Source: a virus
Taxonomy: Duplodnaviria; Caudoviricetes
IMG/VR virus record: IMGVR_UViG_3300031152_000001
Span: 1-62,122 of that record
DNA: 62,122 nt
Reading direction: 5' to 3' (one strand)
Both the position numbers and the translations under genes were made by a program. Positions within the stretch are counted from its first letter, which is position 1, and each line of letters begins with the position of its first letter. The notes beneath the pieces were generated by a model, which saw only the letters and a list, made by a program, of their open reading frames with translations, had not been told where the DNA came from and ran no database searches. Positions 1 through 62,122 of this stretch are shown here, one piece after another.

Positions 1-160
1 CTTCCTGCAGATACGCAGATGGCCGGTTGGCTTTCCTCTGAGGTAGGGTGAGAGTCCCATCCTCAAGCCAACCGGCCATCCTGCCCGGTAAACGCACGGG
101 CCAGCGAGGCAATGCCGGTCCGAAGGGACCAACCAACTTCCGGCCTGCCTCGCGCCGATG
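1..160 (-). ncRNA. Candidate structured small RNA spanning the junction (continues to ~61975); contains anti-SAS hairpin
   Basis: Upstream TAGCGG-N17-TACCGT (194-166); stems CGAGGCA/TGCCTCG, GCCGG/CCGGC, GGTCC/GGACC and a 13-bp GGCCGGTTGGCTT/AAGCCAACCGGCC; no credible ORF. Confidence 0.5.
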
Positions 161-165
161 ACACA

Positions 166-194
166 ACGGTACGTTGCGCCGGAAACTGCCGCTA
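166..194 (-). promoter_or_regulatory. TAGCGG-class promoter
   Basis: TAGCGG(194-189)-N17-TACCGT(171-166). Confidence 0.55.
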
Positions 195-557
195 CTAGCT
201 CGAAATGACTGTGCGCTCCACGACCTGCTTGACAGCCGGGGCACCGGCGACGCCCAGCGCGCCGATGAACTGGATGATGAGCAGAGAGATCTCGTCACCC
301 GTCAGCCCATCGACGATCATCGACACCAGCAGGTTCAGCACGAGCGTGAGCGCGGCCACGATCGTCTTGGCCTTGTCGAAACCGGTGATGTTGGCTGACG
401 CCCAGACAGTCGCCACGCCGAACAGCGCGATGATGACCATGACCCACTCGCTCCGCGAGACACCGTCTCCGGCCACCTGTCGGTAGGTGGTCAGACCGGC
501 CATTACGATCAGCGCGATCAGGTTCAGGATGGTTTTACCACTCGTTTTCCAACTCAT
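195..557 (-). CDS. Holin-like membrane protein
   Basis: 120 aa, ~4 hydrophobic segments, at end of lysis cassette. Confidence 0.65.
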   Translation of the reverse strand: MSWKTSGKTILNLIALIVMAGLTTYRQVAGDGVSRSEWVMVIIALFGVATVWASANITGFDKAKTIVAALTLVLNLLVSMIVDGLTGDEISLLIIQFIGALGVAGAPAVKQVVERTVISS

Positions 558-601
558 TCGCCAACTCCTCTATTGGGGGATCCTAACCGGAGGATAGTCC
601 T

Positions 602-943
602 CTACTCGTTGCGGACTGGCTGGCAGTTGCTCAGCTTGTAAAGCCTGAGCCAAGTCTTTTGGATGTTGATACCGGACTCGGTGCTGGGAGGCTCCTCGCG
701 GTACCCATCCAGGATCGCGGCGAACAGCTGACAGGTCACCTTCCTGGCCTCCTCTCGCGCTACGTTCGCTGCCGCCTGTGCCTGTGCGGCTGCCTCGATC
801 TGCTCAGCGGCAGCCCGTTTCTGCTGTCGATCTGCATTGTTTTCTGCGATCTTCACAGAAGCCAGAACAGAGAGGATCGGCGACAGGATCACCAACAGGA
901 TCGCTGGCACCAACCACTTCGCAGGAACGGTAAGTGGGGTCAT
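602..943 (-). CDS. Membrane-anchored lysis-cassette protein
   Basis: Probable start MTPLTV; N-terminal TM, Ala/Gln coiled region, two Cys. Confidence 0.55.
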   Translation of the reverse strand: MTPLTVPAKWLVPAILLVILSPILSVLASVKIAENNADRQQKRAAAEQIEAAAQAQAAANVAREEARKVTCQLFAAILDGYREEPPSTESGINIQKTWLRLYKLSNCQPVRNE

Positions 944-25792: not shown

Positions 25793-25873
25793 TGTAGGTC
25801 CCTTCGGGTGAGGAGTGGAACCCGCTACCAGCAGGCTCCACTCCCGAACTATCCCTCTGTTGCGAAACTGCCG

Positions 25874-26869
25874 CTAGTTCGCCACGAACTTGTTGCGGCG
25901 ACGCCGGGTTGCCACGACGGCGAACACTCCGCCGATCAGGGCCGCACTGCCCACGGTGACGATGGTCGCCGTCACCGGTCCGGTGACGGGCAGACCGCCG
26001 GACGCGCCGGAGTCTACGCCGGTCCCGACCGGGGGATTGCTGCTGTGCGAGGCGCTGGGGGTCGGCTTGTTCGGGTTGCCCTCGCAGCCGATACCGACCA
26101 CGCCACCGTCGTCCAGACCCCAGGGATCGTTGCCCTTGGTGGCCAGCGTCACGCGGTACTTGATGACGGGGCAATTCGGCCCGTTGGCTTCGTCACCGAA
26201 TCGGTCACACAGCGTCAGCTTGGTGCCGGTGTAGACGTAGGCGTCGCACTTCTGCTTCGGCTTGGTCGTCGGACTGCTGCTGCTCGTACTGGGGCTGGCG
26301 ACCGGCTTGCACGACAGCGCATGCGTGTGACCGTGGAAGCTGATCGACTTCACCAGCGTGCTACCCGACTCGGTCCAGTAGCCGACGCCGAACGTCACGA
26401 CCTTGGTCGCACCGGTGTACGTCTTGCCGGGGAGCGCCACGACGTCCGCATCGGTCAGGTCGATCACGTGCGCGACCGGAGCCGACTGCGAGCCCTTGCC
26501 CGCGGGCACCTTGCTGGACCAGAACTTGCCGTCCGGCGTCTGCACGATCGTGGAGTACGGCGCGGTGGTCTCCATCTTGAAGACCACCTTGTCCGCGGTA
26601 CCGACAGCCACGAAGGAACCGGCCTTGACGTCGGCCAGATCCTGCGGCGTGACGGAGCGGTGGATCAGGTCCTTGCCCTCGAACAGGAAGCCGTCCGCCT
26701 TCTGCGTCGGCACGTCGTCGCCCTCATCCGGGTTGGTGTACCAGCCGGAGGCGTTGGGGCACTTCTCGGAGTTCTTCACGGCGTGCGCGTCTGTCTCGGT
26801 GGCGTACGCCGGGGCACCCATCAGCGCGAGACCCAGCCCGGCCGCAACTGCCAGTAGCAATCTCTTCAT
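25874..26869 (-). CDS. Secreted, sortase-anchored (LPVTG) surface protein
   Basis: Signal peptide MKRLLLAVAAG...AYA; Pro/Ser/Thr linkers; LPVTG + TM + RRRR. Confidence 0.8.
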   Translation of the reverse strand: MKRLLLAVAAGLGLALMGAPAYATETDAHAVKNSEKCPNASGWYTNPDEGDDVPTQKADGFLFEGKDLIHRSVTPQDLADVKAGSFVAVGTADKVVFKMETTAPYSTIVQTPDGKFWSSKVPAGKGSQSAPVAHVIDLTDADVVALPGKTYTGATKVVTFGVGYWTESGSTLVKSISFHGHTHALSCKPVASPSTSSSSPTTKPKQKCDAYVYTGTKLTLCDRFGDEANGPNCPVIKYRVTLATKGNDPWGLDDGGVVGIGCEGNPNKPTPSASHSSNPPVGTGVDSGASGGLPVTGPVTATIVTVGSAALIGGVFAVVATRRRRNKFVAN

Positions 26870-26927: not shown

Positions 26928-27112
26928 CTGTCCATCGTCTCTCCGATGCGTACGACTGGTTTCGACCCTAGCCGTTTGGTCACCAGCAGGGACTGCGCTC
27001 ACGCCCGACCTCTTGGAAAGGCCGGTCCCTCGCAAGCCGTGTGCCGACTGGATTTCTGACCCGCTGTCACCAAGCTATCGCCGGAGGCTGATGCAAGGCT
27101 CCAACAGCGTCG

Positions 27113-27203
27113 TGGGGCGGGCTGGAATCGAACCAACGCCGCGCAGGTCCCGAATGTCCGTACACATCCGATTGCTGCCGCTCTACCTCTGAGCTACCTC
27201 CCC
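27113..27203 (-). ncRNA. tRNA-like RNA with non-canonical extended anticodon arm
   Basis: GGGGAGG-TA-GCTC AGAGGTA GAGC...GTTGG TTCGATT CCAGC-CCGCCCC-A; no 7-nt anticodon loop. Confidence 0.7.
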
Positions 27204-28165: not shown

Positions 28166-28232
28166 TGGGTGGTCCCCTTCGTTGTTTTCTATGTTGAGTA
28201 AAGCTTCGTGTAGCCCGTGCTATTGCCGCTAG

Positions 28233-28712: not shown

Positions 28713-28773
28713 TGGGTTCTCCCACCCTCATTGGAATCTGGTACCAAGGATGGGCCCTACCGCATTGTTGCCG

Positions 28774-29067
28774 CTATCCCTCGATCGCAAAAGGTTGTGA
28801 GCCGTCCATCAACCTCGGGTTGCCCGGCTCGGTCGCGTCGATGACCGGCTCGCTGTAGTCGTCCCGTAGCACCACCCGGATATCGGTCACCTTCGGCCCC
28901 AGCGCCTCCAGGTCCTCCAGCTCCAGCATCTCTGCGTCGTGGCCGACCGGCTGGGCCGCGCCGAACACTCCGGCTAGCACCCAGTGGTTGCCGTTCTTGT
29001 CGATGATGCCGAGGATCCCGGTTGTGGCGCGCTTCTGCGGTACCGAGATCGGTTCACGGTGCGACAT
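28774..29067 (-). CDS. Hypothetical protein
   Basis: Probable start MSHREP with GGAGGAG RBS. Confidence 0.55.
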   Translation of the reverse strand: MSHREPISVPQKRATTGILGIIDKNGNHWVLAGVFGAAQPVGHDAEMLELEDLEALGPKVTDIRVVLRDDYSEPVIDATEPGNPRLMDGSQPFAIEG

Positions 29068-29468: not shown

Positions 29469-29624
29469 TCATGCCTCCGATTGTGCAACGCGCCGCTCTG
29501 GTGCCGCTAGCAGATGCGCCATGTACAGATCGACCTTCGCATCGGCTGCCTGCGGCGAGTGCCCGCGCCAGCGGAGGTAGTCCCGGATGGCCTTGCGCTC
29601 GATCGCGGTGAGCTCACGGCTCAT
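29469..29624 (-). CDS. Small hypothetical protein (51 aa)
   Basis: MSRELTAIERKAIRDYLRW..., GGAGG RBS. Confidence 0.5.
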   Translation of the reverse strand: MSRELTAIERKAIRDYLRWRGHSPQAADAKVDLYMAHLLAAPERRVAQSEA

Positions 29625-31783: not shown

Positions 31784-34261
31784 TCACCCCGCTACGCCCA
31801 CGATCTTTGCCCAACCGGGACGGAGCCTGATACCGACCCGTAGCCGGACCGGTTTCCCCTCCACTCGGAAGATCTCCTTCGGGTACGCCTCCGTAATCTC
31901 CCGGCCGAATTTCGTCCCACTCAAGATGTCCTTTGCCTGTACCCCGTTCTCGCCGCACCAAAGCTGATACGCCTTATAGAGCGAGTTGGGGGAGATCCGA
32001 TACGCCGGATCATCCTTCTCGCCGAACTCGGCAATCTCCTCCAGGCAGGTCGCCAGGTCTGAGATCTCATTCCAGAACTTCAGGTTAGCGCCAACAGCCG
32101 GAGACGGGATCGACTGGACCGAGTCGGGATCGGCTAGGTAGGCGGCATAGCCCTCAACGAGCCACGTGAGGATCCCCTGCCGACCCTCAGCCGACCGGAG
32201 CCGGTCAGCGAACCCGGCATCCTCCTCCGTCTTCGGAATCTCCACCCCAAAGGGCACCACGAGGATCCGGCGCCGGAGCGCGCGGTCAGCCCCCTCAATC
32301 GTGGGCGGACTGTTCGTCACGAGCCACGGCGTGAACCGCGGGACCATATCGACATAGACCTTGGCCTGTAGGGTCCGAGCCGTGATGGGGGCTCCGCCAG
32401 TAAGCCGCTTGATCTGGTCCGGGTGTAGGTGCCAGGATCGGCTTGCCTCCTCCGCGTAGACAAAGCGCTTAGGCAGCACCCGAATGAGGTCCGGTCGTGG
32501 CTTCTCGTCCTGGTTGTCGCGGAAGATCGTCATGTTGGCGGATCCGCCGTACTCCCCCAGCGCAGCCGAGATCGACTCCGCAAAGGTGGTCTTCCCAGTC
32601 GAGGTCTCACCCATGGCCACGATCATCAAGCGGCGAGGATTGCGACCCAGGAGGGAATACCCAGCCAGCTTCTGCAGCCAAGCGCGGATCTCAGGATCCG
32701 GTTGGAAACGGTCTAGGAACTTGTTCCAGTCCGGCGAGACTGCCCCGGCTACGTAGTCGGTGCCGGTCTGGATGGTGTTGTAGTGCTCCTGCAACGACGG
32801 CATCCGCCGGACGGCACTGCCGCTGAACTCAATCGGCAGGTCGACGGTGCCATTCGAGCAGACCAGGTGCGTAGCAGTCGCATCGAACGTTTCCGCAGCT
32901 ACCGTGATGCCCTTGTTGTCGCGGCCGAGACTGAGCATTGAGTTCAGTTTGGCCTCGTTAGAGGAGGTCCGGATGAACTTCCGGAATGCAGACTGCTCCT
33001 TGGGGTCTTCGATGAATCCAATCTCCCGCTCCATCCCGCGGACTGTCTTGATAGCCATCCGGCGGATCTCGCCGGAGTGGTCCTGCTCCCAAACCCTTCC
33101 GTTCCAAACCAGCCATGTCCCGAGAGCTGGGACCCAGCGCACTGAGTCCCGCCACTCCAGCGCAAACCTGGCGCCGTTCCCGATGTCGTCCCGTGAGAAG
33201 TCCATCCCCTCGGAACCGCGGTTGCGCTTGGTGCCCTGCCGGGAGACCGCCGACAAGGCGCAGGGGTCATCCTCATCCGTCGGCCCCTCCGCCGCAACCT
33301 TCAGGACGCCGCGTGCCTTGATAGACGCCCACTCGGCTGCGGCCTTCTCGGGCCGCCGGTTCCGCAGCGCCTCCGCGTGCGCCAGCATCACCTTCCGGAG
33401 CGCCGTCTGGACGCCTGCGTGCCCGCCCGCGGAGTCCCGGAGTAGCGCCCAAGCGGCATCCCGGGCAGCGTCGTGTGCGCCTCCATCTTCCCCGGCAGCG
33501 CTGATCTTCGACATCCACATATCGAGCGTCCGCTGTAGCTTCTCGCACGGCGGTCCGTCTGGCCGGTCCAGAATCCAGGCAGCGACCTCCTTGGGGTCCA
33601 GGTCTGCCTCTTCGCGCTCTTGCCACGCCTTCCCCGCGGTCAGCCCTTCGACCCAGGTAGTTGGCATAGCCGGAATGTCTTCCAGCGCTGGGAATTCCCA
33701 GGTCCCATCCTGCACCGCGGAGCCGGTGGCGTTGTTACCGCCCGGCGTCCACCAGTGGTACTGCTGTCCGGTCTCGTCGTGGATCGACGGCGCCACGATG
33801 ATGTAGCGGTGGTCCCAGCGACACAGCTCTACCCCACCGCCCTGCGGCAGCTTTCCGGGCCACGACAGGCCCTCCGGGATCCGGTACAGCCGGATGCCCG
33901 AGACGCCATCCGTCCGTGACGTGGTCCGCCAGGTCGGTGGGAGCGCGCCCCAGGCATTCTCCGCTGCAGCAAACGTCGCCGCTCCGGCTTTGTCCCCGTA
34001 GTTGTCTACGTCGATGCCGAGGAGCGTCGGCGGCATCCGGAGACAGATGTTGCCGTCCCCCTTGCGGTTGATCCACGACTCAACCGAACTCGCTTCTGCC
34101 TGCCTGCCTTTCTGCCCGGTGTAGCCGACTGGCGGGGACGACTTCTGCCCGGGCGGAAGCGGGAGCGGTGACCAGCCCGCGCTGAAGTACTGCCGTGCCG
34201 AGAACTCATACGGGCGCACTGCGTCCGGTACGGCGGACAGGTGCCGCCGCTTAGCGGTCAC
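31784..34261 (-). CDS. Bifunctional primase-polymerase / SF3 (D5/P4-like) helicase
   Basis: GWSPLPL...IDVD prim-pol; DIGNGARF D5_N; GETSTGKTT; IKRLTGG; RRILVVPF. Confidence 0.92.
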   Translation of the reverse strand: MTAKRRHLSAVPDAVRPYEFSARQYFSAGWSPLPLPPGQKSSPPVGYTGQKGRQAEASSVESWINRKGDGNICLRMPPTLLGIDVDNYGDKAGAATFAAAENAWGALPPTWRTTSRTDGVSGIRLYRIPEGLSWPGKLPQGGGVELCRWDHRYIIVAPSIHDETGQQYHWWTPGGNNATGSAVQDGTWEFPALEDIPAMPTTWVEGLTAGKAWQEREEADLDPKEVAAWILDRPDGPPCEKLQRTLDMWMSKISAAGEDGGAHDAARDAAWALLRDSAGGHAGVQTALRKVMLAHAEALRNRRPEKAAAEWASIKARGVLKVAAEGPTDEDDPCALSAVSRQGTKRNRGSEGMDFSRDDIGNGARFALEWRDSVRWVPALGTWLVWNGRVWEQDHSGEIRRMAIKTVRGMEREIGFIEDPKEQSAFRKFIRTSSNEAKLNSMLSLGRDNKGITVAAETFDATATHLVCSNGTVDLPIEFSGSAVRRMPSLQEHYNTIQTGTDYVAGAVSPDWNKFLDRFQPDPEIRAWLQKLAGYSLLGRNPRRLMIVAMGETSTGKTTFAESISAALGEYGGSANMTIFRDNQDEKPRPDLIRVLPKRFVYAEEASRSWHLHPDQIKRLTGGAPITARTLQAKVYVDMVPRFTPWLVTNSPPTIEGADRALRRRILVVPFGVEIPKTEEDAGFADRLRSAEGRQGILTWLVEGYAAYLADPDSVQSIPSPAVGANLKFWNEISDLATCLEEIAEFGEKDDPAYRISPNSLYKAYQLWCGENGVQAKDILSGTKFGREITEAYPKEIFRVEGKPVRLRVGIRLRPGWAKIVGVAG

Positions 34262-39880: not shown

Positions 39881-39935
39881 GATTGGTCCCTCCTGTAGCT
39901 AGGACAACAGCTTATCGGATCGGAAACTTCTGCCG

Positions 39936-40127
39936 CTACTCAGGCTTCCAAACCGCCATAGCCTGCTCCAGGAGCGGTCGGCGCTTCGGATCGGTACTGG
40001 GCAACTTGGCAGTAGCGCGGATCTTGCTGCGGAGGGTCGGCGGCAGGCGGTACCAGTGCTTACGACAGGCCAGTTCCAAGTCTGAAACCCTTGTGGTGCA
40101 AGACTTTCCCGGGCAGCGGTGGCTCAC
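39936..40127 (-). CDS. Small Zn-finger-like protein
   Basis: HRCPGKSC...ACRKHW. Confidence 0.6.
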   Translation of the reverse strand: MSHRCPGKSCTTRVSDLELACRKHWYRLPPTLRSKIRATAKLPSTDPKRRPLLEQAMAVWKPE

Positions 40128-42421
40128 TCGTCCTCCTCATCCTCGTTCTCATCGTCGTCATCTTCAGGATCAATCACGATCAGTCGCTTGACGTAGATGG
40201 AGGCGCCAAAGCCGCCCTGGGACTTCCGAGCCTCCACCCAGACCACATCGATATCCTCCCGCAACTCCTCCAAAGCCTTTCGGTACAAGGGGAAGTCGTA
40301 TCGGGTGATGCGGACATAGACGTCCTCGCCGCCATCGTCGTAGCAGTGCAGCGTGCAGGAGGTCGCCAGATCCGGCCGCTTCAGTCGAGCCCTGATGACG
40401 TCCAGATCATCACCGGTCCGTGACCGCTCATCCTCAATGACGTCCTTATATTCCTTGAGCTTCGCCATACCGACGAAGTAGACCCGGGTGTCTCCGGTCA
40501 GGTCCAGGATCTTGTCAGAGTTGGCGTTCGGAACCGGTAGCGGGATCGAGCGCTCTGCAATCGCGATCCGCACGGAGTCGAGCGCCATCTGCACCCGCAT
40601 GAGCCCGAACGGGTCATCACCGTCGATCTGCGGCCGCATCTTCTCTAGCTTGGCTGGGCCGATCCCGTTGACCGGCAACAGGTCATCAGCCACCTTCAGG
40701 AGGATGTGCGGGTTGGCCTCACGATAGGCGATGATCTTGTCAGCCAGCGAGTCCCCAACCCCGGTCAGCTGCAGGAAGCCCGCAGCCACACCACCGCCGG
40801 AGGTCGGTGTCCAGGTCAGCCCGGACTCCATCAGGTGGACGCCAGAGATCGGGATGCCGTGTGCCTCCGCGTCGCGGATTAGCTTGGGCCACTTCTCTTC
40901 CTTGATCTTGGAGAGCTGTGCGGCGTAGAACGCGGCCGGGTGGTGGACCTTCATCCACATCGCCCAGTAGCCGATCTGTGTGTAGGCAAGGGAGTGCGAG
41001 TAGACGAATGCATACGAAGCAGAGGTTACTACCCGGCTCCAAACCAGGGACGACAGCTCACGAGACGCGCCGTGTAGCTGGCGCGCACCGTCAGCAAACG
41101 CCTCGAAGGAAGAGTTGAACGCAGCCTCGCCTAGCTTCTTGCTGATGATGCGCCGGATATCGTGTACCTTCCGAACCGGCAGCCCACCGAACCGCGAGAG
41201 AGCGTGCAGGATCTGCTCCTGGTAGATGATCTCTCCCTTCGTGGGGGCCGAGATCTCGTCGATCACCGGATGCACCAGACGCGGCTCCGCCTCGCCGCGC
41301 TTCACCTTGATGTAGTCTGCGGTGGTGCCCGAGAACAGAGGTCCCGGTCGGGAGAGCGCGTTGACGTCGATGAGCTCAAGGAAGTTGTCCGGCTTGAGAT
41401 CCCGACCCACGAGCCGCGTGGCCCGGCCCTCAAACTGAAAGACGCCGTGCACGTCGTTGTCGTGGAACGCTGCGATCGTCGCGGGATCGTCCAGCGGTAG
41501 CCGGTACAACTCCTCCAGTCGCATGTCGGCGAACCGGAGCGCTCTCGCCAGCATTCCCATAGTAGTCAACCCAAGCAAGTCCATCTTCATCAGGTTGAGA
41601 TACTCAGCGTCATACTTGTCGACCGCAACCGCGGTGATCTCGCGCTTCTTGACGATCCGGGTGTACTGCGCGGTGATGTCTGAAATCGGCTCGGTACAAA
41701 CCACGACTCCGGCCGAGTGCGTACTCATCGACCGGTAGTCACCCTCCAGATCGATCGCAATCTGGATCTCCTTGGGGTACTTGGCGTAGATCTCCTTGGC
41801 ACCCTCGAACATGTCGATCGTGTCGCCCAGTGCCGCGTCTGCGCGGGAGTCACCGCCAGACCGTTCGACAATCATGCCCTTCAGTCGCTCGATGTCGGAC
41901 CGGAACGAGCCACCGACGGCCCGGTGCACCGTGGCCACGTCCTTGAGGGAGTTCTTGCCCTTGTACTTGGTGAAGGTACCGATGTTGCCGACGTATGCCT
42001 TGCCGTACTTGGTCTCCACATAGGTGCGGACCTCGTGCCGCCTCTCGTCCTCGAAGTCCACGTCAATGTCCGGCAGGTCCTCACGCGTCGGGTCGATGAA
42101 GCGCGAGAAGTCGGTGAGTGGGAAGTCGAGCGGATCCGGCTCGGTGATCCGTAGCAGCCAACAGACAACCGAGGCAGCGCTGCTGCCTCGGCCGGGTCCG
42201 ACTGCGATGCCCTGATCCTTCGCCCAGCGGAGGATGTCGCTCACCATCAGGAAGTACGAGACGAATTCCTTTGGGATGATCTGCGCCATCTCATGCTTGA
42301 TCTGGGCGAGGTACCGATCCGTGCCGTTGCGCGTCGGGTCCCAGCCCTGCCTGACCCGGTAGGCCCAGCCCTCCCGCAGCCACGCCCAGAGCAGGTCTAC
42401 AGGCTCGATCGGAGTGCTCAC
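40124..42421 (-). CDS. dnaE: DNA polymerase III alpha, catalytic part
   Basis: GPGRGS, PDIDVD, HSAGVV, KMDLLGL, GVFQFE, RPGP, YQEQ. Confidence 0.93.
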   Translation of the reverse strand: MSTPIEPVDLLWAWLREGWAYRVRQGWDPTRNGTDRYLAQIKHEMAQIIPKEFVSYFLMVSDILRWAKDQGIAVGPGRGSSAASVVCWLLRITEPDPLDFPLTDFSRFIDPTREDLPDIDVDFEDERRHEVRTYVETKYGKAYVGNIGTFTKYKGKNSLKDVATVHRAVGGSFRSDIERLKGMIVERSGGDSRADAALGDTIDMFEGAKEIYAKYPKEIQIAIDLEGDYRSMSTHSAGVVVCTEPISDITAQYTRIVKKREITAVAVDKYDAEYLNLMKMDLLGLTTMGMLARALRFADMRLEELYRLPLDDPATIAAFHDNDVHGVFQFEGRATRLVGRDLKPDNFLELIDVNALSRPGPLFSGTTADYIKVKRGEAEPRLVHPVIDEISAPTKGEIIYQEQILHALSRFGGLPVRKVHDIRRIISKKLGEAAFNSSFEAFADGARQLHGASRELSSLVWSRVVTSASYAFVYSHSLAYTQIGYWAMWMKVHHPAAFYAAQLSKIKEEKWPKLIRDAEAHGIPISGVHLMESGLTWTPTSGGGVAAGFLQLTGVGDSLADKIIAYREANPHILLKVADDLLPVNGIGPAKLEKMRPQIDGDDPFGLMRVQMALDSVRIAIAERSIPLPVPNANSDKILDLTGDTRVYFVGMAKLKEYKDVIEDERSRTGDDLDVIRARLKRPDLATSCTLHCYDDGGEDVYVRITRYDFPLYRKALEELREDIDVVWVEARKSQGGFGASIYVKRLIVIDPEDDDDENEDEEDE

Positions 42422-42693
42422 CGGGCAGCCCATACCCAGACAGTCCGCGCGCTTTGCGTGTGCTCTGCGCAGACGGTGTGCTTGCCGTCTCGGGAGTGGT
42501 AATTGGATTCCCAACCCGCCTCCGGCGTCCGGCTGAACAGGACCAGACCGGCCTTCTCTGCGACCGCAGCTACCGACTCCTCCACTATATGCCGTTCCTC
42601 AGCCAGGTAGTGCGTGGAGATTCCCCAGTCCGTCTCGTAGGGCATCCGCGGCATAGTGGCGTATCGCTTCCCCATCACTCCTCCCAGATCCAC
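42418..42693 (-). CDS. Hypothetical protein between dnaE halves
   Basis: Overlaps catalytic-part start (GTGA). Confidence 0.5.
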   Translation of the reverse strand: MDLGGVMGKRYATMPRMPYETDWGISTHYLAEERHIVEESVAAVAEKAGLVLFSRTPEAGWESNYHSRDGKHTVCAEHTQSARTVWVWAAR

Positions 42694-42869
42694 ACCGGCG
42701 ACGAACCGGGGAACTGCTCGCTGCTCAGCTCAACAGAGATTGCGCCGGACCGCATCCAACCCGCTCTCGGCTCGGCTTTGGGAAGCTCCATCGTCTTGCT
42801 GACGATCCTCCCGGCTGCCTCAGCGGTCCAATCCGGGGAACGGACAAACCAACAGATGCGCTTCACCAC
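42675..42869 (-). CDS. Hypothetical protein between dnaE halves
   Basis: 64 aa overlapping PHP stop. Confidence 0.4.
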   Translation of the reverse strand: MVKRICWFVRSPDWTAEAAGRIVSKTMELPKAEPRAGWMRSGAISVELSSEQFPGSSPVWIWEE

Positions 42870-43768
42870 TTCATCTCCTCTGCTGTTGCGGGGTACTGGA
42901 ATCGGGGCGCTTTGGGGAGAACAACGTCACACCGTTCTGCGATACGCGCCGTGTTCCGGCAGGCTTCAACTGCTGCAGCCGGAGATAGACCTGCTCTGCA
43001 TAGGCGTTCATATACCTCAGCATCGCTGCGCGGAATGTAATCCGGCACCTCATATTCCCAGCCCTCCATCTGCTGCGCGATCGTGTTGGCTCCGCGCCCG
43101 GCGGCGTGCTTAGTCGCGCGGATCTCGTGCTGTCCCGGCACCAGAGTGTGGACATCGCACGTGGCAACGAGCGGGACACCCAACTCCCGGCCCATCCTCT
43201 CCCAGGAGGCATTGAGTTCCAGCGCACGGGGTAGCTCCGGAAACACCTGGCACTCCAGGTAGTACCGGTCCCCCAACAGATCCTTCATCCGCCCGGCAAG
43301 ATCCAGCGCACGTTCCCAAGAAGCATCCGCTTCCGGGATTGACTTGCCCCCTAATAGACTGCAGCTCAAGAGGGAGTCTGCACACCCAGATGTGGCTATC
43401 AAACCCTCTTGGTACCGAGCCAGGGTCTTCCCCGTCACCGTTGGCCATCGGTAGTAGTCCTCCCAGCTCTTCGTCACAATCCGGTACAAGTTGGATAATC
43501 CAACTTGGTTCATCGCCAGGATGGTCTGGTGGAACTTCCGCGCATCCTGCTCGCCGGTCGCGGTGTAAGCCTCTAGCCCGAACAGCGGCTTGATGCCGTG
43601 CTTGAGGCAGGCCTTCTCGTGCTGGACGTGTCCGGAGACGTTGCCGTGATCCGTGATAGCCAGCGCCGTCATCCCATAGCCCGCAGCGACCTCCGCGTGC
43701 TCCGCAGGGGTGCCTAGCGCGTCCTGGTAGGAGAACGTGTTATGGTGATGGATCGAGACGAACTTCAC
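42863..43768 (-). CDS. dnaE: DNA polymerase III alpha, PHP domain part
   Basis: HHHNTFS, AITDHG, GLEAY, ATCDVH. Confidence 0.9.
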   Translation of the reverse strand: MKFVSIHHHNTFSYQDALGTPAEHAEVAAGYGMTALAITDHGNVSGHVQHEKACLKHGIKPLFGLEAYTATGEQDARKFHQTILAMNQVGLSNLYRIVTKSWEDYYRWPTVTGKTLARYQEGLIATSGCADSLLSCSLLGGKSIPEADASWERALDLAGRMKDLLGDRYYLECQVFPELPRALELNASWERMGRELGVPLVATCDVHTLVPGQHEIRATKHAAGRGANTIAQQMEGWEYEVPDYIPRSDAEVYERLCRAGLSPAAAVEACRNTARIAERCDVVLPKAPRFQYPATAEEMKW

Positions 43769-48752: not shown

Positions 48753-48977
48753 TCATCCGCGGGCCTCCCCGTGGTCGTGGTCGTACTTGCGGGGGTAGAG
48801 CCGGTGCATTGCCTCGTGGTAGGACCGCCACTCCTTGGGAGCATGCAGACGCCGCTCGCCTGCGTCCGGCTCCACGGTGAACTCCATCCTGAGATCGTCC
48901 TCGTGTCGGTTCTCCAGGTGCTTCATCAGCGTCTCGTCATCCATGACTTGCACAGAGACGACGCGTATGCTTTCCAT
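48753..48977 (-). CDS. His-rich small protein
   Basis: HxxxRH...HEAMH...HDH; SAS upstream. Confidence 0.6.
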   Translation of the reverse strand: MESIRVVSVQVMDDETLMKHLENRHEDDLRMEFTVEPDAGERRLHAPKEWRSYHEAMHRLYPRKYDHDHGEARG

Positions 48978-49034
48978 TCCGGTCCCTTCGGTTCTCCTCA
49001 GGCTACGCCGGACATTACATTGCCGCTACGGGCA

Positions 49035-51353: not shown

Positions 51354-51429
51354 TTCACCAGTCCCTCTTGTTGGGGAGCAGATGCTCTTGGCCTTGATTA
51401 GGTGATACTACTCGTCGCGCCGACTGCCG

Positions 51430-52572
51430 CTACTCGTCGGTGCTCTTGCGGTGATCCGCGTAGGGATCGCGCTGTCTGAATGCGATCCGGCGTAGCTCCT
51501 GCCAGGTGCCCCCACGGTCCTCCAGCTCGCACATCGCGAAGAACTGGCACTCTCGATGGCAGGCGTAGTTGGGGCTCTTGATCAGCGGCAGCAGACCGTC
51601 CCGCACCGCCTGCATGTGCACTGCTTCATCCTGGATCCGCCGGAGCTGGATGGTCCGCTCTGTCGAGGTTCGGTGCACCAACTCCCGCTGGAACAACGGA
51701 GCCGGTTGGACCTTGGAGCGCTCGCCCAGTACCGTGATCCCGCGGGAGGCAGCAAGCTCTTCCAGCTTCGCAATCGTCGGGAGCTTCGCAGTTGATGCTT
51801 CAAGTGGCGAGAGCCCGAGTGCCCGGGCATAATCCGCCTTGACGGGCTTGTTGGTGGCGTAGCCGTCAGGATCGAGCGGCCGTGTGTCCGGCAGGCCCTT
51901 CCGAAGGAAGTTGTAGTTGATGCCGCTGATGTTCTCCTTCAGCCCGATCAGTCCCTGCTTCCGCAGCGTCGCCGTGGCCACCGCCCAGTAGCTCCCGGCC
52001 TGGTTGTCGAGCGTCAGGTGTCCGGTCTGAATCGACTTGGCCGTCTTGGTCTCCAGCAGCTCGATCCGCCCGGTGCGAAGGTCGCGGTACACACCGTCAT
52101 AGGTGCCCTTGTAGACCACGATCGGGCCGGAGTCGCTGTCCACCTCATAGATGCCCTGTCGGTTGTCTTCCGGCTTGGGCCACGGGATGTCGAGCGAGAA
52201 CTGTTGCTCCGCCTGGATAAAGTCCCAAGCCGGATCCAGTCCCCAGTGCTTGACGTACTCCTCCAGCAGGGTCACGCCCAGGGTTGCCGCGTCCTCCCAC
52301 TGCGCCACCGTCGCTTCATCGGTCTCCGTAACCACCTTCACAGTGCGCATCGCTTCTCCAGCGAGTTCGGTGAAGGTCTGCGCCGGATGGATGCCGCGCT
52401 TGACGCCGGGGATGTACCACGCCGCCAGCGCGGCGTGCGTGATGGTTCCGAACCAGAACGGCGTGGACTCAGCACCGATCGGCACCAGGCCCTCCCGGTA
52501 CGCCCACCACCACTTGCGCGGGCAGCGCTCCCAGGTGCTCCGCTCCGAGGTCCGCAGGATCGGCGCAGTCAT
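51430..52572 (-). CDS. PD-(D/E)XK / Cas4-like exonuclease
   Basis: RTSER..CPR, GTITH, GTYD...LETKT, Q...Y, C...C.....C. Confidence 0.85.
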   Translation of the reverse strand: MTAPILRTSERSTWERCPRKWWWAYREGLVPIGAESTPFWFGTITHAALAAWYIPGVKRGIHPAQTFTELAGEAMRTVKVVTETDEATVAQWEDAATLGVTLLEEYVKHWGLDPAWDFIQAEQQFSLDIPWPKPEDNRQGIYEVDSDSGPIVVYKGTYDGVYRDLRTGRIELLETKTAKSIQTGHLTLDNQAGSYWAVATATLRKQGLIGLKENISGINYNFLRKGLPDTRPLDPDGYATNKPVKADYARALGLSPLEASTAKLPTIAKLEELAASRGITVLGERSKVQPAPLFQRELVHRTSTERTIQLRRIQDEAVHMQAVRDGLLPLIKSPNYACHRECQFFAMCELEDRGGTWQELRRIAFRQRDPYADHRKSTDE

Positions 52573-52711: not shown

Positions 52712-52924
52712 TCACGGCAAGACGCCAGCCTTGATGAGACCGAGGACGAACAGGAACGTGCCCATTCCAACGAGGACCAACGATCCCATGATGATGGCGA
52801 CCGGTGCCCACAGCGGCCCTGCAGATTGGCGAGCGTTGGAACGAGCCTGCTTCCTGGCCCACTCCTGCACCTCATCCGACGGCGGCACGGTGTCAGTGTC
52901 ATAGATGCTGTTGAGGAAGTCCAC
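52712..52924 (-). CDS. Small membrane protein
   Basis: C-terminal TM; SAS plus GTTCGTAGGAATTG upstream. Confidence 0.6.
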   Translation of the reverse strand: MDFLNSIYDTDTVPPSDEVQEWARKQARSNARQSAGPLWAPVAIIMGSLVLVGMGTFLFVLGLIKAGVLP

Positions 52925-52982
52925 GATCTTGGTCCCTTCGACAATTCCTACGAACTAGGTTCCGGTAGATTGGAAACCTACG

Positions 52983-53095
52983 TGACGAGGGGCGGAGTTG
53001 AACCACCTGTCTCCAGGGCTCTCAGAGGGTTGGCGAACACCGAAGTGCTTCCCAGATTCCCTTGGCCCGGTGCCTTTCCCTTAGGCCACCTCGCC
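52983..53095 (-). ncRNA. tRNA-like RNA with anticodon arm replaced by long UUCG-capped hairpin
   Basis: GGCGAGG-TG-GCCT AAGGGAA AGGC...GGTGG TTCAACT CCGCC-CCTCGTC-A; insert GCAC TTCG GTG. Confidence 0.7.
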
Positions 53096-53763: not shown

Positions 53764-53934
53764 TTATCGCTTGAAGGTGATCCGGTTAAGCGTTACAGTC
53801 CCGTTACGGAGACCGCGCTGATACTGTTGCTGCTCCACAAAATCGGCTTCCGCCTCCTCAACGCCGGACTCCCAGCGCCGTCCGATCAGGAAGCCGAAGT
53901 AGCCTGCGAAGCAGACGACGATGGTTGCGATCAC
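53764..53934 (-). CDS. Small membrane protein (56 aa)
   Basis: GTG start overlapping helicase stop; IATIVVCFAGYFGFLIG. Confidence 0.5.
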   Translation of the reverse strand: MIATIVVCFAGYFGFLIGRRWESGVEEAEADFVEQQQYQRGLRNGTVTLNRITFKR

Positions 53935-55970
53935 GACTTCACGAACTCCTTTGCCCGCCTTGCGATCTGTTGCGCGTTCAAGATCTTCAGACCGAGCCGC
54001 TTGGCCTCCGCGTTGGCAGCAGCGATGTGCTCCTCCAGCGTCCCCGCGGACCGCAGGTAGTAGTAGCTCCTGGGGGCAATCCGGCGCTCCGGCTGGCGGT
54101 TGTCGATCCGGCCCTCAACCTGCTCCTGCTCATCCGCCACGAAGGTCTCATCCAGGAACACCATCACGTCAGCGGCATCGAGCGTGATCGAGCTGCCGCC
54201 TGCTTTCGTGTTGAGGAACATGATGTCGAGCGGGCTATCGGCATCTTCAAACCGGTCCACGGTCATGGTGCGGTTAGAGGAGGTCTGCTCGCCGGTCAGC
54301 ATCCCGATTCGCTTGGTATCTAGCTTCAGGTCCTTACGAACGCCATCGGCGAACGCGTTGAGCAGCTTGGTGAACTGTGACACCACTATGATCTTAGTGG
54401 ACGGCTTGTCGGGCAGCCCCATCGAGGTAAGGAACTCCACCAGCCACTCGTACTTGTTGCCCTTGGCCAACGGAACCATCTGTCCGCCATGGTAGGTCCA
54501 CTCCGCGCTGGCGAACTGGCGGAGCCGGGTCAGCTCTGCCAAGGTACCGATCGGGTTGACGTCTCCACCGGCGAGCGTCGCGCTCCCAGTCTTCTCCATC
54601 TCACGGTAGGTCTGCTCCTGACTTCTCGTCATCGGCAGGTATATGCCCTCAGTCAGCCCGTCTCGGTCCTGATCGACGTTGGACGGGTAGCTCTTGGCCG
54701 GGAGGTCTCCACGGACCTCATCACGGGTCCGCCGGAGCATGACATCAGTCAGCTCCGAGAGCATCAGCGCTTCGCGCTCCTCCATGAAGCCATCCTGCAC
54801 GATCTCATAGCCGGAGTAGCCACCAGTCTTCCAGTAGTTCTGGATCCAGCGCCACTTACCGCTCCAGCGTACAGGATCGAGCCAGTTGAGAGTGCTCCAG
54901 AGCTGATGCGGCTTGGACCGGAACGGCGTTCCACTCATCGCCAGCCGCAGCCCGCCCGGGGGCACGAGGTCCCGCAACATCTCCATCCCGCGACGCTGTA
55001 GGTTTGGCGTGCCGGTCAGCCGGATCAGGATCTGGTCTGACTCGTCCGCCACCACAGCGCCCCATTCAATCGAGAACAACTGCGGGAAGGTGTGGTCGTC
55101 CTCCACCCGGGTGCGAGCTGGACCTTGCGTGCGCTTCTCATGTCCGCAGTTCAGCTCCGGTACCGGGCCAACCTTGTACTTGGTCTTGGCGCCGCAAACG
55201 GAAACCTCTCCGGCCACGTCAGTCTCAAGCTCCTGGCAGACGAACCACGTCTGAGTACGTACCATGGCCGGGTGGACTACAACCCATGTACGTCCCTGAG
55301 AAGCGCGATGTTCATCCACGAGCCTTGCGGACAGGTGTGCATCCTGCCCGTCATAGACCTTCGGTCCGTATACCAGGTTCCAAAGGATCTCGTCACGCTT
55401 GGCGCGTCCATCCGGAAGAGTGATGACCTCATCCTCGGGCAGCCACTTGCGGATCTCCTTGGCCCAGGTGCTCTCCGCTGCCGTCTTGGGGCAGACGATC
55501 AGGAACGGTCCCGTGATCCCAATCTCCAGGATCGCACCAAGAGCCTGGGCCGACTTGCCGAGTCCGACTGTGTCCGCCAGCAGGGCGCGCTTCCGGCCGT
55601 CACGCCCCTCGGTGTCCGCGATGTACCGGACGCCGGAGCGCTGATACCGGCGCGTGTCCATGGCCTTAAACAGCTGCGGAGCGACCTCGGGGAGTCGGGA
55701 TAGGTCCGCGTCGTACGCACCGGCAGTCGCTTCCGCCTCAGCGCGCTTGGCCTTCTCGGCACGAGCCCAAATGGTCAGGCTCGGCCCGATCACCAATCGG
55801 TTTCCGAACTTCTCGCGGAGTAGCTGGCAGGTGGTGAGATCGAGCGGCACGCTCCAAACGCATTCACGGTCCCGGAAATACGCGCCGGGAATAGAGCCGT
55901 CCAGCATCAGGTGCGACTCGCTGGCCACCAATATCCGGTTCTTGGCACGCTCCACCCGGACGATCATCAT
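53931..55970 (-). CDS. SNF2-family helicase
   Basis: LADTVGLGKS, VADESD, SGTP, QVEGRIDNR. Confidence 0.88.
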   Translation of the reverse strand: MMIVRVERAKNRILVASESHLMLDGSIPGAYFRDRECVWSVPLDLTTCQLLREKFGNRLVIGPSLTIWARAEKAKRAEAEATAGAYDADLSRLPEVAPQLFKAMDTRRYQRSGVRYIADTEGRDGRKRALLADTVGLGKSAQALGAILEIGITGPFLIVCPKTAAESTWAKEIRKWLPEDEVITLPDGRAKRDEILWNLVYGPKVYDGQDAHLSARLVDEHRASQGRTWVVVHPAMVRTQTWFVCQELETDVAGEVSVCGAKTKYKVGPVPELNCGHEKRTQGPARTRVEDDHTFPQLFSIEWGAVVADESDQILIRLTGTPNLQRRGMEMLRDLVPPGGLRLAMSGTPFRSKPHQLWSTLNWLDPVRWSGKWRWIQNYWKTGGYSGYEIVQDGFMEEREALMLSELTDVMLRRTRDEVRGDLPAKSYPSNVDQDRDGLTEGIYLPMTRSQEQTYREMEKTGSATLAGGDVNPIGTLAELTRLRQFASAEWTYHGGQMVPLAKGNKYEWLVEFLTSMGLPDKPSTKIIVVSQFTKLLNAFADGVRKDLKLDTKRIGMLTGEQTSSNRTMTVDRFEDADSPLDIMFLNTKAGGSSITLDAADVMVFLDETFVADEQEQVEGRIDNRQPERRIAPRSYYYLRSAGTLEEHIAAANAEAKRLGLKILNAQQIARRAKEFVKS

Positions 55971-56042
55971 CAGGTCCCTTCGTGGTAAGCCCTCATCTTA
56001 CGCCAATGATGCCCCGGCCGGTAGCCGGGGCACCAAGATCCT

Positions 56043-56504
56043 TCAGTTCGCTACTGCGGCGAGCTTGGCCGGGCTGGTAGCAGCTTTCTTGGCTACCGGG
56101 CGACGCTTCCGGGCGGTGGGCCGCGCCGGTGCGGGCCGGAGCGCCGCACTCGCGATCGCCATCGGGAGGTCGATGATCACCGGGAAGAGGTAGGCGGTGA
56201 CGGCGTCCGCACCGTGCTCGGTCACCAGCTCCACCACGTGCCAGTAGCTCATCCAGGCCGCCACCGCGATCACCGGGACGATCGCCCAGCGGACCCAGCG
56301 GGGGTGCGTGGAGCCGTTCTCCAGCAGGTAGATCGAGCCGAGCAGCATCAGCGCCGGGAACCCACCGACTACCACACCGACCGGGGTGCCATCAGAAGCC
56401 ATCAGGTTCGCTGCGAGGGAAGCGGTAGCGCCAGTCAGGAATACGGTCATTGCGGCGATTCGGCCATTCCGGGCCTTGCGGGCGGTGGCGGAAAGCTTGG
56501 TCAT
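56043..56504 (-). CDS. DUF2637-like membrane protein
   Basis: SLAAN, AAWMSYWH, LFPVIID motifs. Confidence 0.7.
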   Translation of the reverse strand: MTKLSATARKARNGRIAAMTVFLTGATASLAANLMASDGTPVGVVVGGFPALMLLGSIYLLENGSTHPRWVRWAIVPVIAVAAWMSYWHVVELVTEHGADAVTAYLFPVIIDLPMAIASAALRPAPARPTARKRRPVAKKAATSPAKLAAVAN

Positions 56505-56554
56505 TTCAGGTCCCTTCGGTTTGGCGAGGCTCTCACCCCTCGCTTACAAACAGA

Positions 56555-56819: not shown

Positions 56820-56950
56820 CAGAAGTCTCTTCCGCGCATGTAGCCGACCACCAAGAATGCCACCAGATATCCAGCGACGAACCAGAAGCCGTCACCCCAA
56901 TCGGAGGTGATGCCGATCACCAGCGCTACCAATAAGATCAGGGGGTTCAT
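56819..56950 (-). CDS. Small membrane peptide (43 aa)
   Basis: MNPLILLVAL...GRDF, TGATG overlaps. Confidence 0.5.
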   Translation of the reverse strand: MNPLILLVALVIGITSDWGDGFWFVAGYLVAFLVVGYMRGRDF

Positions 56951-57765: not shown

Positions 57766-57861
57766 TGACCTGGTCCCTTCGACAATTCCTACGAACTTAC
57801 TAGGTAGGTTTATGAGCTACCTGGGCGATGCTCGGCTGGAGCCGAGCATCACCCTCCGGGC

Positions 57862-58086
57862 TCAGTGTCCGTCGTCCTCTGGGACGGCCAGCCGCACGAT
57901 CTCGCCGGTGATGTCGATCGCGGCGTCATCGAGCCGCTTCACCAGCACGCCGTAGGTCCGGCCGTCCTGCCCGCCGATCCTGAAAAAGCTCTCGCCAATC
58001 CCCATGTGGACTTCCACGTCAGAGCTGAGGTTCGGGCTGAAGTCGAGACAGCGCCGCAGCTCCTCCGCGACCTCGAAGTGGCTCAT
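57862..58086 (-). CDS. Hypothetical protein
   Basis: 74 aa, ATGA overlap. Confidence 0.5.
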   Translation of the reverse strand: MSHFEVAEELRRCLDFSPNLSSDVEVHMGIGESFFRIGGQDGRTYGVLVKRLDDAAIDITGEIVRLAVPEDDGH

Positions 58087-58346: not shown

Positions 58347-58439
58347 ATTGGTCCCTTCATCAGCCCGCTCTCTCGGGCACTACCGGCAGTCTACTCCACT
58401 GGAGAGCCGGGAGGGAACCCCCTCCCGGCTCCGGGCCTC

Positions 58440-59189: not shown

Positions 59190-59410
59190 GGTAGGTCCCT
59201 TCGGTTCGGCCCCTCTCACCGGGCCACTGGAGACAACTCTACCCGGACCTGGCCAATTTTCACCCATCGGATCCCCAACTTTTTCAAGATTCTTTTCAGG
59301 CACCAATGCATACCTAGAACCAGGTTCGTATGATTTGCTATCTACCTGCTGGAATGGTCCGGGCGCCCACCGTATTGGTGAGCGCCCGTGTTTCGCGCTA
59401 TCCGAACTCC

Positions 59411-59758: not shown

Positions 59759-59950
59759 TCGTTGGCCTCCGTTGGAACTAGGTGGGTTGCCGCCCCAGCC
59801 GGGGCATGGCTCCTTGCTCTTCTCGCCGTGCGAGCCGTGCAGGTGCGATATCGCGCACCAGGATGCTCTCATCGTCCAACTCCCGATTGTGGTGAGGGTG
59901 GGACCAGGGAGACCTCAGCTACGCCTGGACCCACCCTCGCTCAAGGGGTT

Positions 59951-61015: not shown

Positions 61016-61111
61016 GATCGGTCCCTTCGGTCTGGAGCGCTCTCTCGCCCACTTCAATGACGCTACTCCATGTGGTGCCCGCCCGGAAGTGCTCCAGGCG
61101 GGCAGATCGGC

Positions 61112-61876: not shown

Positions 61877-61920
61877 CTTGGTCCCTTCGTCGGTGGGCCT
61901 CTCACCAGCCCAACGCCTAC

Positions 61921-61950: not shown

Positions 61951-61995
61951 CAAAAATCTTGGAATACCCGGAAGAAGGTTCGTAGGAATTGGTTT

Positions 61996-62122
61996 CTTCC
62001 TGCAGATACGCAGATGGCCGGTTGGCTTTCCTCTGAGGTAGGGTGAGAGTCCCATCCTCAAGCCAACCGGCCATCCTGCCCGGTAAACGCACGGGCCAGC
62101 GAGGCAATGCCGGTCCGAAGGG
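61996..62122. repeat. 127-nt terminal direct repeat identical to 1..127 (probable assembly k-mer overlap)
   Basis: cttcctgcag...ccgaaggg occurs at both 1-127 and 61996-62122; 127 is a common assembler k. Confidence 0.9.

Follow-up and report, generated by a model that had tools for sequence, protein, structure and literature searches.

A conserved, structured element carrying the complement of a start-associated motif: a candidate trans-acting antisense RNA in an undescribed actinobacteriophage

The closest described counterpart of the system considered here is found in cluster K mycobacteriophages, in which ~10-19 genes, most of them non-structural, carry a short asymmetric motif with a Shine-Dalgarno core, the start-associated sequence (SAS; GGGATAGGAGCCC), just a few bases ahead of their start codons and with nearly uniform orientation (Pope et al. 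2011, PMC3203893). Upstream of some SAS copies there is an extended SAS (ESAS) composed of two imperfect 17-bp inverted repeats (PMC3203893). In the passages of the literature that deal with it, the function of the cluster K SAS is called unknown in 2011, 2024 and 2025 (PMC3203893, PMC11373665, PMC12699233), and its partner is left open as "RNA or protein" (PMC3203893). Full-text searches of the literature on start-associated sequences returned no proposal of an RNA partner in the text retrieved. Here, we describe an analogous system in the virus record IMGVR_UViG_3300031152_000001, whose 62,122 nucleotides were analyzed in full (the window). A start-associated motif, CGAAGGGACC, precedes genes dispersed over the genome, and its complement is presented by a conserved, structured element located between a holin-like gene and the first early gene.

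As in the parts of the cluster K description that we compared, the motif in the window is asymmetric, sits 2-6 nt before ATG or GTG, is orientation-biased and is found mostly outside the structural half of the genome. Unlike the cluster K SAS, it reads CGAAGGGACC and fails to match GGGATAGGAGCCC when up to two mismatches are allowed, which makes it an analogue rather than a member by sequence, and the window phage is only distantly related to cluster K phages. The upstream element also differs from the cluster K ESAS as described, since it is a single 14-16-nt block, GTTCGTAGGAATTG, with a small hairpin. We nevertheless use SAS and ESAS for the elements of the window as well.

The motif is strongly overrepresented, with 10 exact copies in the window when 0.15 are expected, a number that none of 100 shuffles reaches. 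It includes a Shine-Dalgarno-like AAGGG. All nine exact copies on the minus strand are located 2-6 nt upstream of ATG or GTG, and a tenth start-associated copy, TGAAGGGACC, has one mismatch (58350-58359). The only exact copy on the plus strand, at 121-130, is the sole inverted one, as claimed in an earlier note made on this DNA from the letters alone. That note had placed the motif in front of about 12 genes; its start-associated position is correct, while the count is 10 genes. The 12-mer CGAAGGGACCAA, cited in the note as a perfect match between the inverted copy and two leaders, is present at 52929-52940 and 61878-61889. The start-associated copies are distributed as follows.

61880..61889, minus strand: SAS, exact, before the first early gene (ATG 61876-61874)
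61020..61029, minus strand: SAS, exact, before gene 59951-61015
59194..59203, minus strand: SAS, exact, before gene 58440-59189
58350..58359, minus strand: SAS variant TGAAGGGACC, one mismatch, before gene 58083-58346
57772..57796, minus strand: ESAS (GTTCGTAGGAATTG) followed by SAS, exact, before gene 56950-57765
56509..56518, minus strand: SAS, exact, before gene 56043-56504
55973..55982, minus strand: SAS, exact, before the helicase gene 53931-55970
52931..52955, minus strand: ESAS followed by SAS, exact, before gene 52712-52924
48981..48990, minus strand: SAS, exact, before gene 48753-48977, with a promoter-like TAGCGGCA site upstream (49021-49028)
25797..25806, minus strand: SAS, exact, before a small gene ahead of the structural genes, with a TAGCGGCA site upstream (25869-25876)

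Nine of these copies lie between 48.9 and 61.9 kb and one at 25.8 kb. Eight of the ten motif genes fall within the first 9 kb of the early region, and the motif genes are promoter-proximal. Five early leaders share a common organization: a -10-like TAnAnT is followed by a 5' hairpin with a variable stem and a G(U/A)GAGAG loop, and then by the motif. These loops are found on the minus strand at 61894-61911, 61040-61046, 59213-59219, 58368-58374 and 56530-56536, the hairpin beginning ~2-3 nt from the putative transcription start. Since the loops are kept while the stems vary, the leader hairpins are expected to act as RNA, and they may be 5' stabilizers or recognition loops. As a separate observation, tRNA T-arm-like sequences (GGTTCGATTCC-like) occur directly upstream of ESAS-type leaders, at ~52960-53030 in the window and, in two related phages, at ~33920-33965 (G003) and ~55760-55806 (G004); ARAGORN finds no tRNA at the window place (~52960-53030).

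The inverted copy of the motif is located in a 312-nt intergenic region, the junction, which extends from the stop codon of the holin-like gene (197-195) to the first early start codon (61876-61874). Positions 1-127 are identical to 61996-62122, and the window (63% G+C) is therefore a circular assembly comprising 61,995 unique bases. Such an end identity is typical of contigs that an assembler has closed by k-mer overlap and not of a true biological repeat at the termini, and a relative (G004) likewise has a 127-nt end overlap. The intergenic region pointed out in the earlier note is thus real, but it is an ordinary internal gap of the circular assembly rather than a junction of window ends. 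It is non-coding, as no reading frame in it is conserved among relatives. A small plus-strand open reading frame (158-208, 16 codons) was rejected because it lies 27 nt from the motif and lacks conservation. No match to the junction was returned when 50,697 phage records were searched at the nucleotide level, and no Rfam family reaches threshold for the window junction; the best Rfam match in a relative (L001/L037, one contig) is ctRNA_pGA1, with 23.9 bits for a threshold of 45. The features of the junction, in the order in which they are read on the minus strand, which carries all credible genes and is called the coding strand below, are as follows.

195..557, minus strand: holin-like gene (120 aa) ending the late/lysis block; open reading frame matching phrog_17055, with 58-61% identical homologues in relatives; stop TAG 197-195
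187..194, minus strand: TAGCGGCA, -35-like element of the candidate small RNA promoter; invariant in seven aligned junctions and also present in the partial junction L034
160..180, minus strand: P0 hairpin, GGCGCAACG-TAC-CGTTGTGTC, from per-sequence folds; a hairpin is predicted here in each relative
166..171, minus strand: TACCGT, -10-like hexamer (TAnnnT) 15 nt after TAGCGGCA; the transcription start would lie near 159
104..153, minus strand: P1 arm, GCGAGGCA (153-146) pairing with TGCCTCGC (111-104) and enclosing the anti-SAS, from folds and covariation
121..134, minus strand: anti-SAS GGUUGGUCCCUUCG, exact complement of CGAAGGGACC(AACC), at the apex of P1; the most conserved block
83..101, minus strand: P2 hairpin, GCCCG (101-97) pairing with CGGGC (87-83); helix 2, 94% of cells paired
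21..77, minus strand: P3, a long GC-rich hairpin, GGCCGGUUGGCUU (77-65) pairing with AAGCCAACCGGCC (33-21), apical loop CUCUCAC (54-48), from folds and covariation
7..20, minus strand: weakly U-rich tail after P3, AUCUGCGUAUCUGC, candidate 3' end of the small RNA; GUUUGCGUUUUC, UUCCGUGUUUUUGC and similar sequences in relatives
61970..62000, minus strand: P4 hairpin, GGAAGAA/UUCUUCC, with the anti-ESAS CCAAUUCCUACGAACC (61992-61977) in its loop; conserved in the seven complete junctions, with two substitutions in L032
61921..61926, minus strand: TAATAT, -10 hexamer of the first early promoter; TAnnnT is found here in 7/7 junctions
61894..61911, minus strand: hairpin in the 5' leader of the first early gene, loop GGUGAGAG; an identical loop on other stems at 61040, 59213, 58368 and 56530

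All three leader elements (ESAS, GAGAG hairpin and motif) are therefore mirrored in the junction with their order kept, the third counterpart being the CUCUCAC in the loop of the largest hairpin. The CUCUCA in this loop is complementary to the GAGAG loops of the early-leader hairpins. As for the 14-mer GTTCGTAGGAATTG, for which the earlier note had reported an inverted copy in the junction, it occurs three times in the window: on the plus strand at 61978-61991, and on the minus strand beside the motif at 52942-52955 and 57783-57796.

Protein-guided and pattern-guided scans identified six further syntenic junctions, so that seven could be compared: the window, four from virus contigs (L001/G002, L032/G001, L035/G003 and L036/G004) and two from metagenome contigs (L038 and L040), with L034 as a partial case. 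All are from uncultivated actinobacterial phages of soil, and the seven sequences include two pairs of close relatives. The flanking proteins are 44-59% (first early protein) and 57-61% (holin) identical to those of the window. Common to these relatives are TAGCGGCA at the holin stop, GGTTGGTCCCTTC, CTCTCA, CCAATTCCTACGAAC (slightly altered in L032), the early promoter, the hairpin and the motif. While the mean column identity of the junction alignment is 61-63%, GGTTGGTCCCTTC is invariant. In the anti-SAS, 14/14 positions are invariant in the seven sequences except for the last base, which changes from G to A in L001. Exact copies of GAAGGGACC in forward and reverse orientation number 13 and 2 in G001, 13 and 1 in G002, 7 and 1 in G003, and 7 and 1 in G004, one reverse copy being in the junction each time; the second reverse copy in G001 (59355-59363), outside the junction, is taken as a chance 9-mer, ~0.5 of which we estimate to be expected per genome. 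By contrast, the complete but more distant G005, whose first early protein is 40% identical, has neither a motif copy nor a match to the RNA model described below. Among the phages compared, none keeps the SAS without the inverted copy, the finding that the earlier note had named as fatal to its proposal; the RNA and the motif are either both present or both absent.

Other scans yielded little. An exact 15-mer scan of viral contigs returned 29 stretches, the real relatives being two contigs. A gapped pattern scan of viral contigs gave six stretches, five of them already known and one (L060) a chance match, and the same kind of scan in genome contigs gave nine stretches without other features of the element, where ~8 chance matches were estimated. 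Protein-profile scans found no syntenic junction beyond the seven, except the partial L034.

The junction is predicted to fold into the same series of helices in all relatives. When folded alone on the coding strand, each of the seven sequences adopts the P0-P1-P2-P3-P4 arrangement, with z-scores of -4.3 to -6.0. All seven were then re-aligned to a covariance model that we constructed for P1-P3, so the alignment on which covariation was assessed is model-fitted. In this alignment, 89.9% of the cells pair, versus 34-48% when the partners are slid, and 9/26 pairs are changed on both sides, versus 1-5 with slid partners. Observed values are reached by 0/500 shuffles on four of five measures and by 16/500 on the remaining one, "further pair types." Helix 1 (P1) has eight pairs, four of which are changed on both sides, with 87% of cells paired: the stem is GCGAGGCA/TGCCTCGC in the window, GCGGAGGA/TCCTCCGC in L035 and L036, GCGGAGCCGA/TCGGCTCCGC in L040 and CGGCGGTG/CACCGCCG in L038, pairing being kept throughout. 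Helix 3 (P3) has 13 pairs, four of which are changed on both sides, and its CTCTCA is invariant. A different pairing proposed by RNAalifold on a plain MAFFT alignment, of TAGCGG with CCGC instead of P1, was rejected because P1 is longer and covaries. The several stems noticed earlier in the window thus belong to a conserved, covarying structure present in seven sequences. The particular hairpin singled out by the earlier note, GGUCC-CUUC-GGACC, is present in the window but is not what is conserved, since four of the seven sequences keep it, one has it with a G.U pair, another has it shortened to 4 bp and one lacks it; the invariant 14-mer is GGTTGGTCCCTTCG. Together, these findings provide good support for a conserved, structured and probably transcribed element that carries the complement of the motif.

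The same element is headed by a promoter-like motif. The minus-strand TAGCGG-N17-TACCGT of the earlier note is in place, with hexamers at 194-189 and 171-166, and it belongs to a recurring bipartite motif, TAGCGGCA-N15/16-TAnnnT. TAGCGGCA has 10 copies in the window, with 1.38 expected, and eight of them are on the minus strand. On the coding strand of five genomes, 23/36 TAGCGGCA sites have a TAnnnT at N14-16 (background 0.8%), versus 0/6 on the opposite strand. In 7/7 junctions, TAnnnT is found at two conserved places, 23-24 nt from the start of TAGCGGCA and in the early promoter. By sigma-A/sigma-70 criteria, the -10 TAnnnT and the 17-nt spacer fit, and the -35 reads TAGCGG, not TTGACA. These recurring sites with a -35-like TAGCGG look like a phage-specific promoter class. 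The others precede genes located ~10 kb or more into the early region, the stretch ahead of the structural genes included, and judging from their position alone, the class could be a "middle/late" one. The RNA would run from ~159 to ~8, i.e., over ~150 nt. This bears on the anti-ESAS, which the earlier note had assigned to the 3' part of a single RNA: the sequence is present, but it lies downstream of the terminator-like P3 and is therefore not obviously part of the same RNA.

Several observations on these sites stand apart. In the window, intergenic TAGCGGCA sites occur on the minus strand at 25869-25876, 28224-28231, 28769-28776, 29502-29509, 39931-39938, 49021-49028 and 51425-51432, often overlapping the stop codon of the preceding gene; three of the seven have a TAnnnT 14-16 nt later. 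In some early promoters, the -10 is preceded, at a distance of 18 nt, by a similar TAGACG. Genes downstream of TAGCGGCA sites repeatedly have a second ribosome-site variant, AGGAGGGACCA, in front of them, at ~39885-39895 in the window (coding-strand coordinate 22103) and, in relatives, at 40244 and 51366 in G001, 26195 in G002, 46544 in G003, and 8164 and 59496 in G004. It differs from the motif by an A to G change, at a position that could still form a G.U pair with the anti-SAS.

We propose, with about even confidence, that the element (window 7-194, minus strand) encodes a small RNA of ~150 nt that acts in trans as an antisense RNA by pairing with the start-associated motif of promoter-proximal genes. 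We infer transcription, RNA ends, pairing and direction of effect from the sequences compared. In this scenario, the promoter TAGCGGCA-N15-TACCGT would drive a non-coding RNA made of P1 with its apical anti-SAS, P2, P3 and a U-rich tail. This RNA would pair with the SAS leaders and cover their ribosome-binding sites, and its accumulation would lower the translation, and probably the stability, of the motif gene set. The P3 loop might make a second contact, with the GAGAG loops in the hairpins of the 5' leaders. Pairing could also take place in cis, within read-through RNA of the late operon. Actinobacterial hosts have no known Hfq-type chaperone.

Structural modeling of the pairing gives a mixed picture. 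The seed offers 10-12 nt of perfect complementarity to nine leaders, plus one leader with a G.U pair. The mean unpaired probability of the 9-nt anti-SAS core GGUCCCUUC is 0.44-0.69, versus 0.29-0.37 for the whole RNA, and that of the P3 loop is ~1.0; two to four bases of the seed are paired in every fold prediction. When the RNA was cofolded with motif leaders, the minimum-energy dimer used the anti-SAS (12-14 bp) in 8/10 cases, versus 0/12 for control leaders. In a genome-wide scan for seed duplexes, motif leaders rank first to third.

A number of points weigh against the proposed trans-acting RNA. The anti-SAS is not used in the cofold of the other two of the ten motif leaders, and net binding energies overlap, ranging from -3.8 to -14.2 kcal/mol for motif leaders and from -3.8 to -12.5 kcal/mol for the 12 controls. 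The genome-wide scan is not selective, many unrelated GC-rich windows reaching -24 to -27 kcal/mol, and energy alone therefore cannot define targets. Scans for Escherichia coli-type consensus sequences give no promoter or terminator in the junction region of the window and L036, and an intrinsic terminator (GC-rich hairpin with at least five U within 8 nt) is found neither in window 1-700 nor in L036. The U tract after P3 is poor, and the -35-like TAGCGG is unlike TTGACA. Strand asymmetry on the model alignment is weak, with six G.U and U.G cells versus three A.C and C.A cells. Covariation was assessed on seven sequences only, two pairs of which are close relatives, in an alignment fitted to the model. 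Finally, the motif does not hold up as the mark of an early regulon that the earlier note took it to be: two of the ten window copies follow TAGCGGCA sites, one of them ahead of structural genes, and a scheme in which a late RNA shuts off early genes is too neat.

Evidence for co-evolution of the RNA and its proposed targets comes from the last base of the anti-SAS, which is A only in L001/G002 and G elsewhere. The matching leader base, before GAAGGGACC, is T in 7/13 and C in 0/13 copies in G002. In genomes with G in the RNA, this base is C in 8/13 copies in G001, a close relative of G002, 9/10 in G000, 6/7 in G003 and 7/7 in G004. The covariation between the small RNA and the SAS that the earlier note had proposed looking for in related phages is seen at this one base, the A-for-G switch in G002 being accompanied by T in about half of the leader copies. 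Co-evolution ties the junction copy to the dispersed copies, and it does not by itself separate pairing from a shared binding factor. A census of one-mismatch motifs is of no help here: it counts 14 wobble-compatible and 11 pairing-breaking start-associated variants, but at the informative positions every transition preserves wobble pairing, and the Shine-Dalgarno core is under constraint in any case, so that these counts cannot discriminate.

The co-evolution in G002 also has to be counted on the negative side: it would be expected just as much if a factor, either a protein or ribosome-associated, that recognizes the motif used the junction copy as an additional site. Such a site could be double-stranded DNA in the opposite orientation or a titrating site, and no RNA-RNA pairing would be involved. 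The junction copy does follow the same consensus as the dispersed copies, down to the C/T switch in G002, the mirrored ESAS, GAGAG hairpin and motif follow the order of the leaders, and the wording on the cluster K partner leaves room for a protein (PMC3203893). We nonetheless regard this explanation as rather improbable. The leader loops are conserved and the stems differ, whereas a duplex operator would show the opposite, and this speaks for RNA. At the RNA level, the coding strand of the junction carries the complements of the leader elements, so a single RNA-binding protein could not read both. Moreover, the junction copy sits in a covarying stem, which a DNA site does not need.

The location of the element raises another explanation, namely that it is a cis-acting 3' module of the late operon. 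P0-P3 would then be terminator, insulator or stabilizer hairpins, and the anti-SAS, acting only in cis, would hide the ribosome site ahead of the first early gene whenever late transcripts read through, and so keep late RNA from re-expressing early genes. The element starts at the holin stop codon, and the strong P3 hairpin is exactly between the late and early units. P0, which directly follows the holin stop, overlaps the promoter spacer and encloses the -10 and would therefore exist only in read-through RNA from the holin gene; its G.U pairs, seen in the window, L035 and L036, form only on the minus strand, and the modeled hairpin could end or attenuate late-operon transcripts. In modeled read-through RNA, the anti-SAS pairs in cis with the motif of the first gene with a probability of 0.999 in the window and 0.85 in L040, but of 0.00-0.21 in the other 5/7 junctions. 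In addition, a promoter-like motif of a recurring class heads the element in 7/7 junctions, and both the P3 loop and the anti-ESAS complement leader elements, of which the leader of the first gene lacks the ESAS and, in G003/G004, the GAGAG loop as well. We consider a purely cis-acting role unlikely for these reasons.

Which strand would be transcribed is a further question, as the leader elements read in leader order on the plus strand. A functional plus-strand transcript could be a leader mimic (ESAS, GAGAG-loop hairpin and motif) serving as a decoy, the alternative raised in the earlier note, or an antisense RNA to the end of the holin gene. Plus-strand folds have equally negative z-scores (-4.2 to -7.2). 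Positionally conserved TAnnnT hexamers are nevertheless restricted to the coding strand; the other strand has none, two of the seven junctions lacking any TAnnnT on it, and the decoy accordingly has no conserved -10. On the plus strand, 27 nt separate the motif copy from its nearest ATG, there is no conserved open reading frame, and P3 lacks a U-rich tail. Predicted folds contain G.U at 34/363 pairs on the coding strand versus 11/328 on the complement. A coding-strand RNA is favored by the conserved promoter-like motif and -10 positions and by the U-richer side of P3 as well as the higher count of predicted G.U pairs, and a functional plus-strand transcript seems very improbable to us.

Last, the inverted motif could be without function, a relic of an inverted leader duplication kept inside a structural hairpin. 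When compared by eye, the P3 apex does look like a leader hairpin in inverted form, differing from that of the first early gene by one mismatch. We give this idea hardly any credence, considering that the 14-mer has remained invariant while the surrounding stems changed on both sides, that it follows the consensus of the dispersed copies and that it is absent where the motif is absent.

As for the genome in which the element resides, gene order on the minus strand from 61876 downward is small early genes, followed by helicase, exonuclease, DNA polymerase and primase, then terminase (21810), portal, capsid and tape measure, the last gene being the holin-like gene (557-195). The capsid protein is at most 41% identical to the capsids of Arthrobacter, Micrococcus, Gordonia, Microbacterium and Mycobacterium phages (162 records), and the window is an undescribed actinobacteriophage. 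Two other features were noticed. A tRNA-like gene of 92 nt (27112-27203, minus strand) matches Rfam tRNA with 43.6 bits and is reported by ARAGORN, which assigns it no anticodon, as "tRNA-???" with cg at position 34; it may be intron-bearing or degenerate. The DNA polymerase is encoded in two minus-strand frames ~350 nt apart, 40124-42514 and 42863-43768, the 301-aa product matching positions 42-330 of phrog_405 and the 796-aa product positions 335-891, which may reflect a split gene or an intervening element.

An important question is whether the same arrangement exists in the phages in which the SAS was first described. According to the sections of Pope et al. on the motif, each of the four K1 phages described there has one SAS in the opposite orientation (PMC3203893). 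We located this copy in Mycobacterium phage Anaya (K1; L074): it occupies record positions 59870-59882 and lies within the 385-nt non-coding gap that separates gp96 from gp97.

L074 39683-40070 (record 59682-60069): Anaya gap region, with the inverted SAS as apical loop CCUCCUAUCC

The inverted SAS forms the 10-nt apical loop of a long hairpin (z-score -4.6), downstream of a terminator and an invariant TAGACT, and the gap is conserved in 182 cluster K records. Phage Unicorn (K6) has 16 start-associated copies within two mismatches, yet its loop has two central mismatches to the motif. Since Unicorn keeps the motif and not the complementarity of the loop, the parallel is real for K1 and is not general. 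We tentatively suggest, as a possibility we would not yet bet on, that SAS motifs of actinobacteriophages are docking sites for a phage antisense RNA, whose anti-ribosome-binding-site seed and kissing loop would time the translation of a promoter-proximal gene set. By analogy, the same docking logic may explain the single inverted SAS of cluster K1 mycobacteriophages. What the present phage group offers is a concrete candidate for the partner of an SAS: a conserved, covarying RNA, headed by a promoter-like motif of its own, in which the most strongly conserved block complements the SAS exactly. If correct, this would also provide a simple handle for switching off gene sets in actinobacterial hosts.

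Among known regulators, the candidate RNA can be compared with three kinds of base-pairing RNA, as they are portrayed in the parts of the sources cited. Like the mycobacterial B11/6C small RNA, which represses many genes through pyrimidine-rich loops directed at purine-rich ribosome-binding sites (PMC10470900), it would address a set of genes through their ribosome-binding sites. A title in the reference list of that source indicates that B11/6C works without a known chaperone (PMC10470900). Unlike the candidate, B11/6C is host-encoded and uses two C-rich loops against generic G tracts (PMC10470900), whereas here a specific 10-14-mer faces a phage-specific motif, and no Rfam match to the 6C family was found in the junctions searched. 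The sar RNA of P22 and the OOP RNA of lambda are, like the candidate, small phage RNAs that regulate genes of their own phage by base pairing, but they are transcribed opposite a single target gene (PMC12197685), while the candidate RNA is complementary to distant sites. The c4 antisense RNA of P1/P7 is similar in being a structured phage RNA in which loop-presented complements block translation at a phage ribosome-binding site (PMC12197685). There is no sequence or Rfam relation between the two, and c4 has one target, the ant/icd leader, and serves immunity (PMC12197685), whereas here one seed matches about ten dispersed leaders. If the proposal is correct, a phage RNA would control a whole set of the phage's own genes via their ribosome-binding sites, which goes beyond the one-target antisense RNAs of P1, P22 and lambda.

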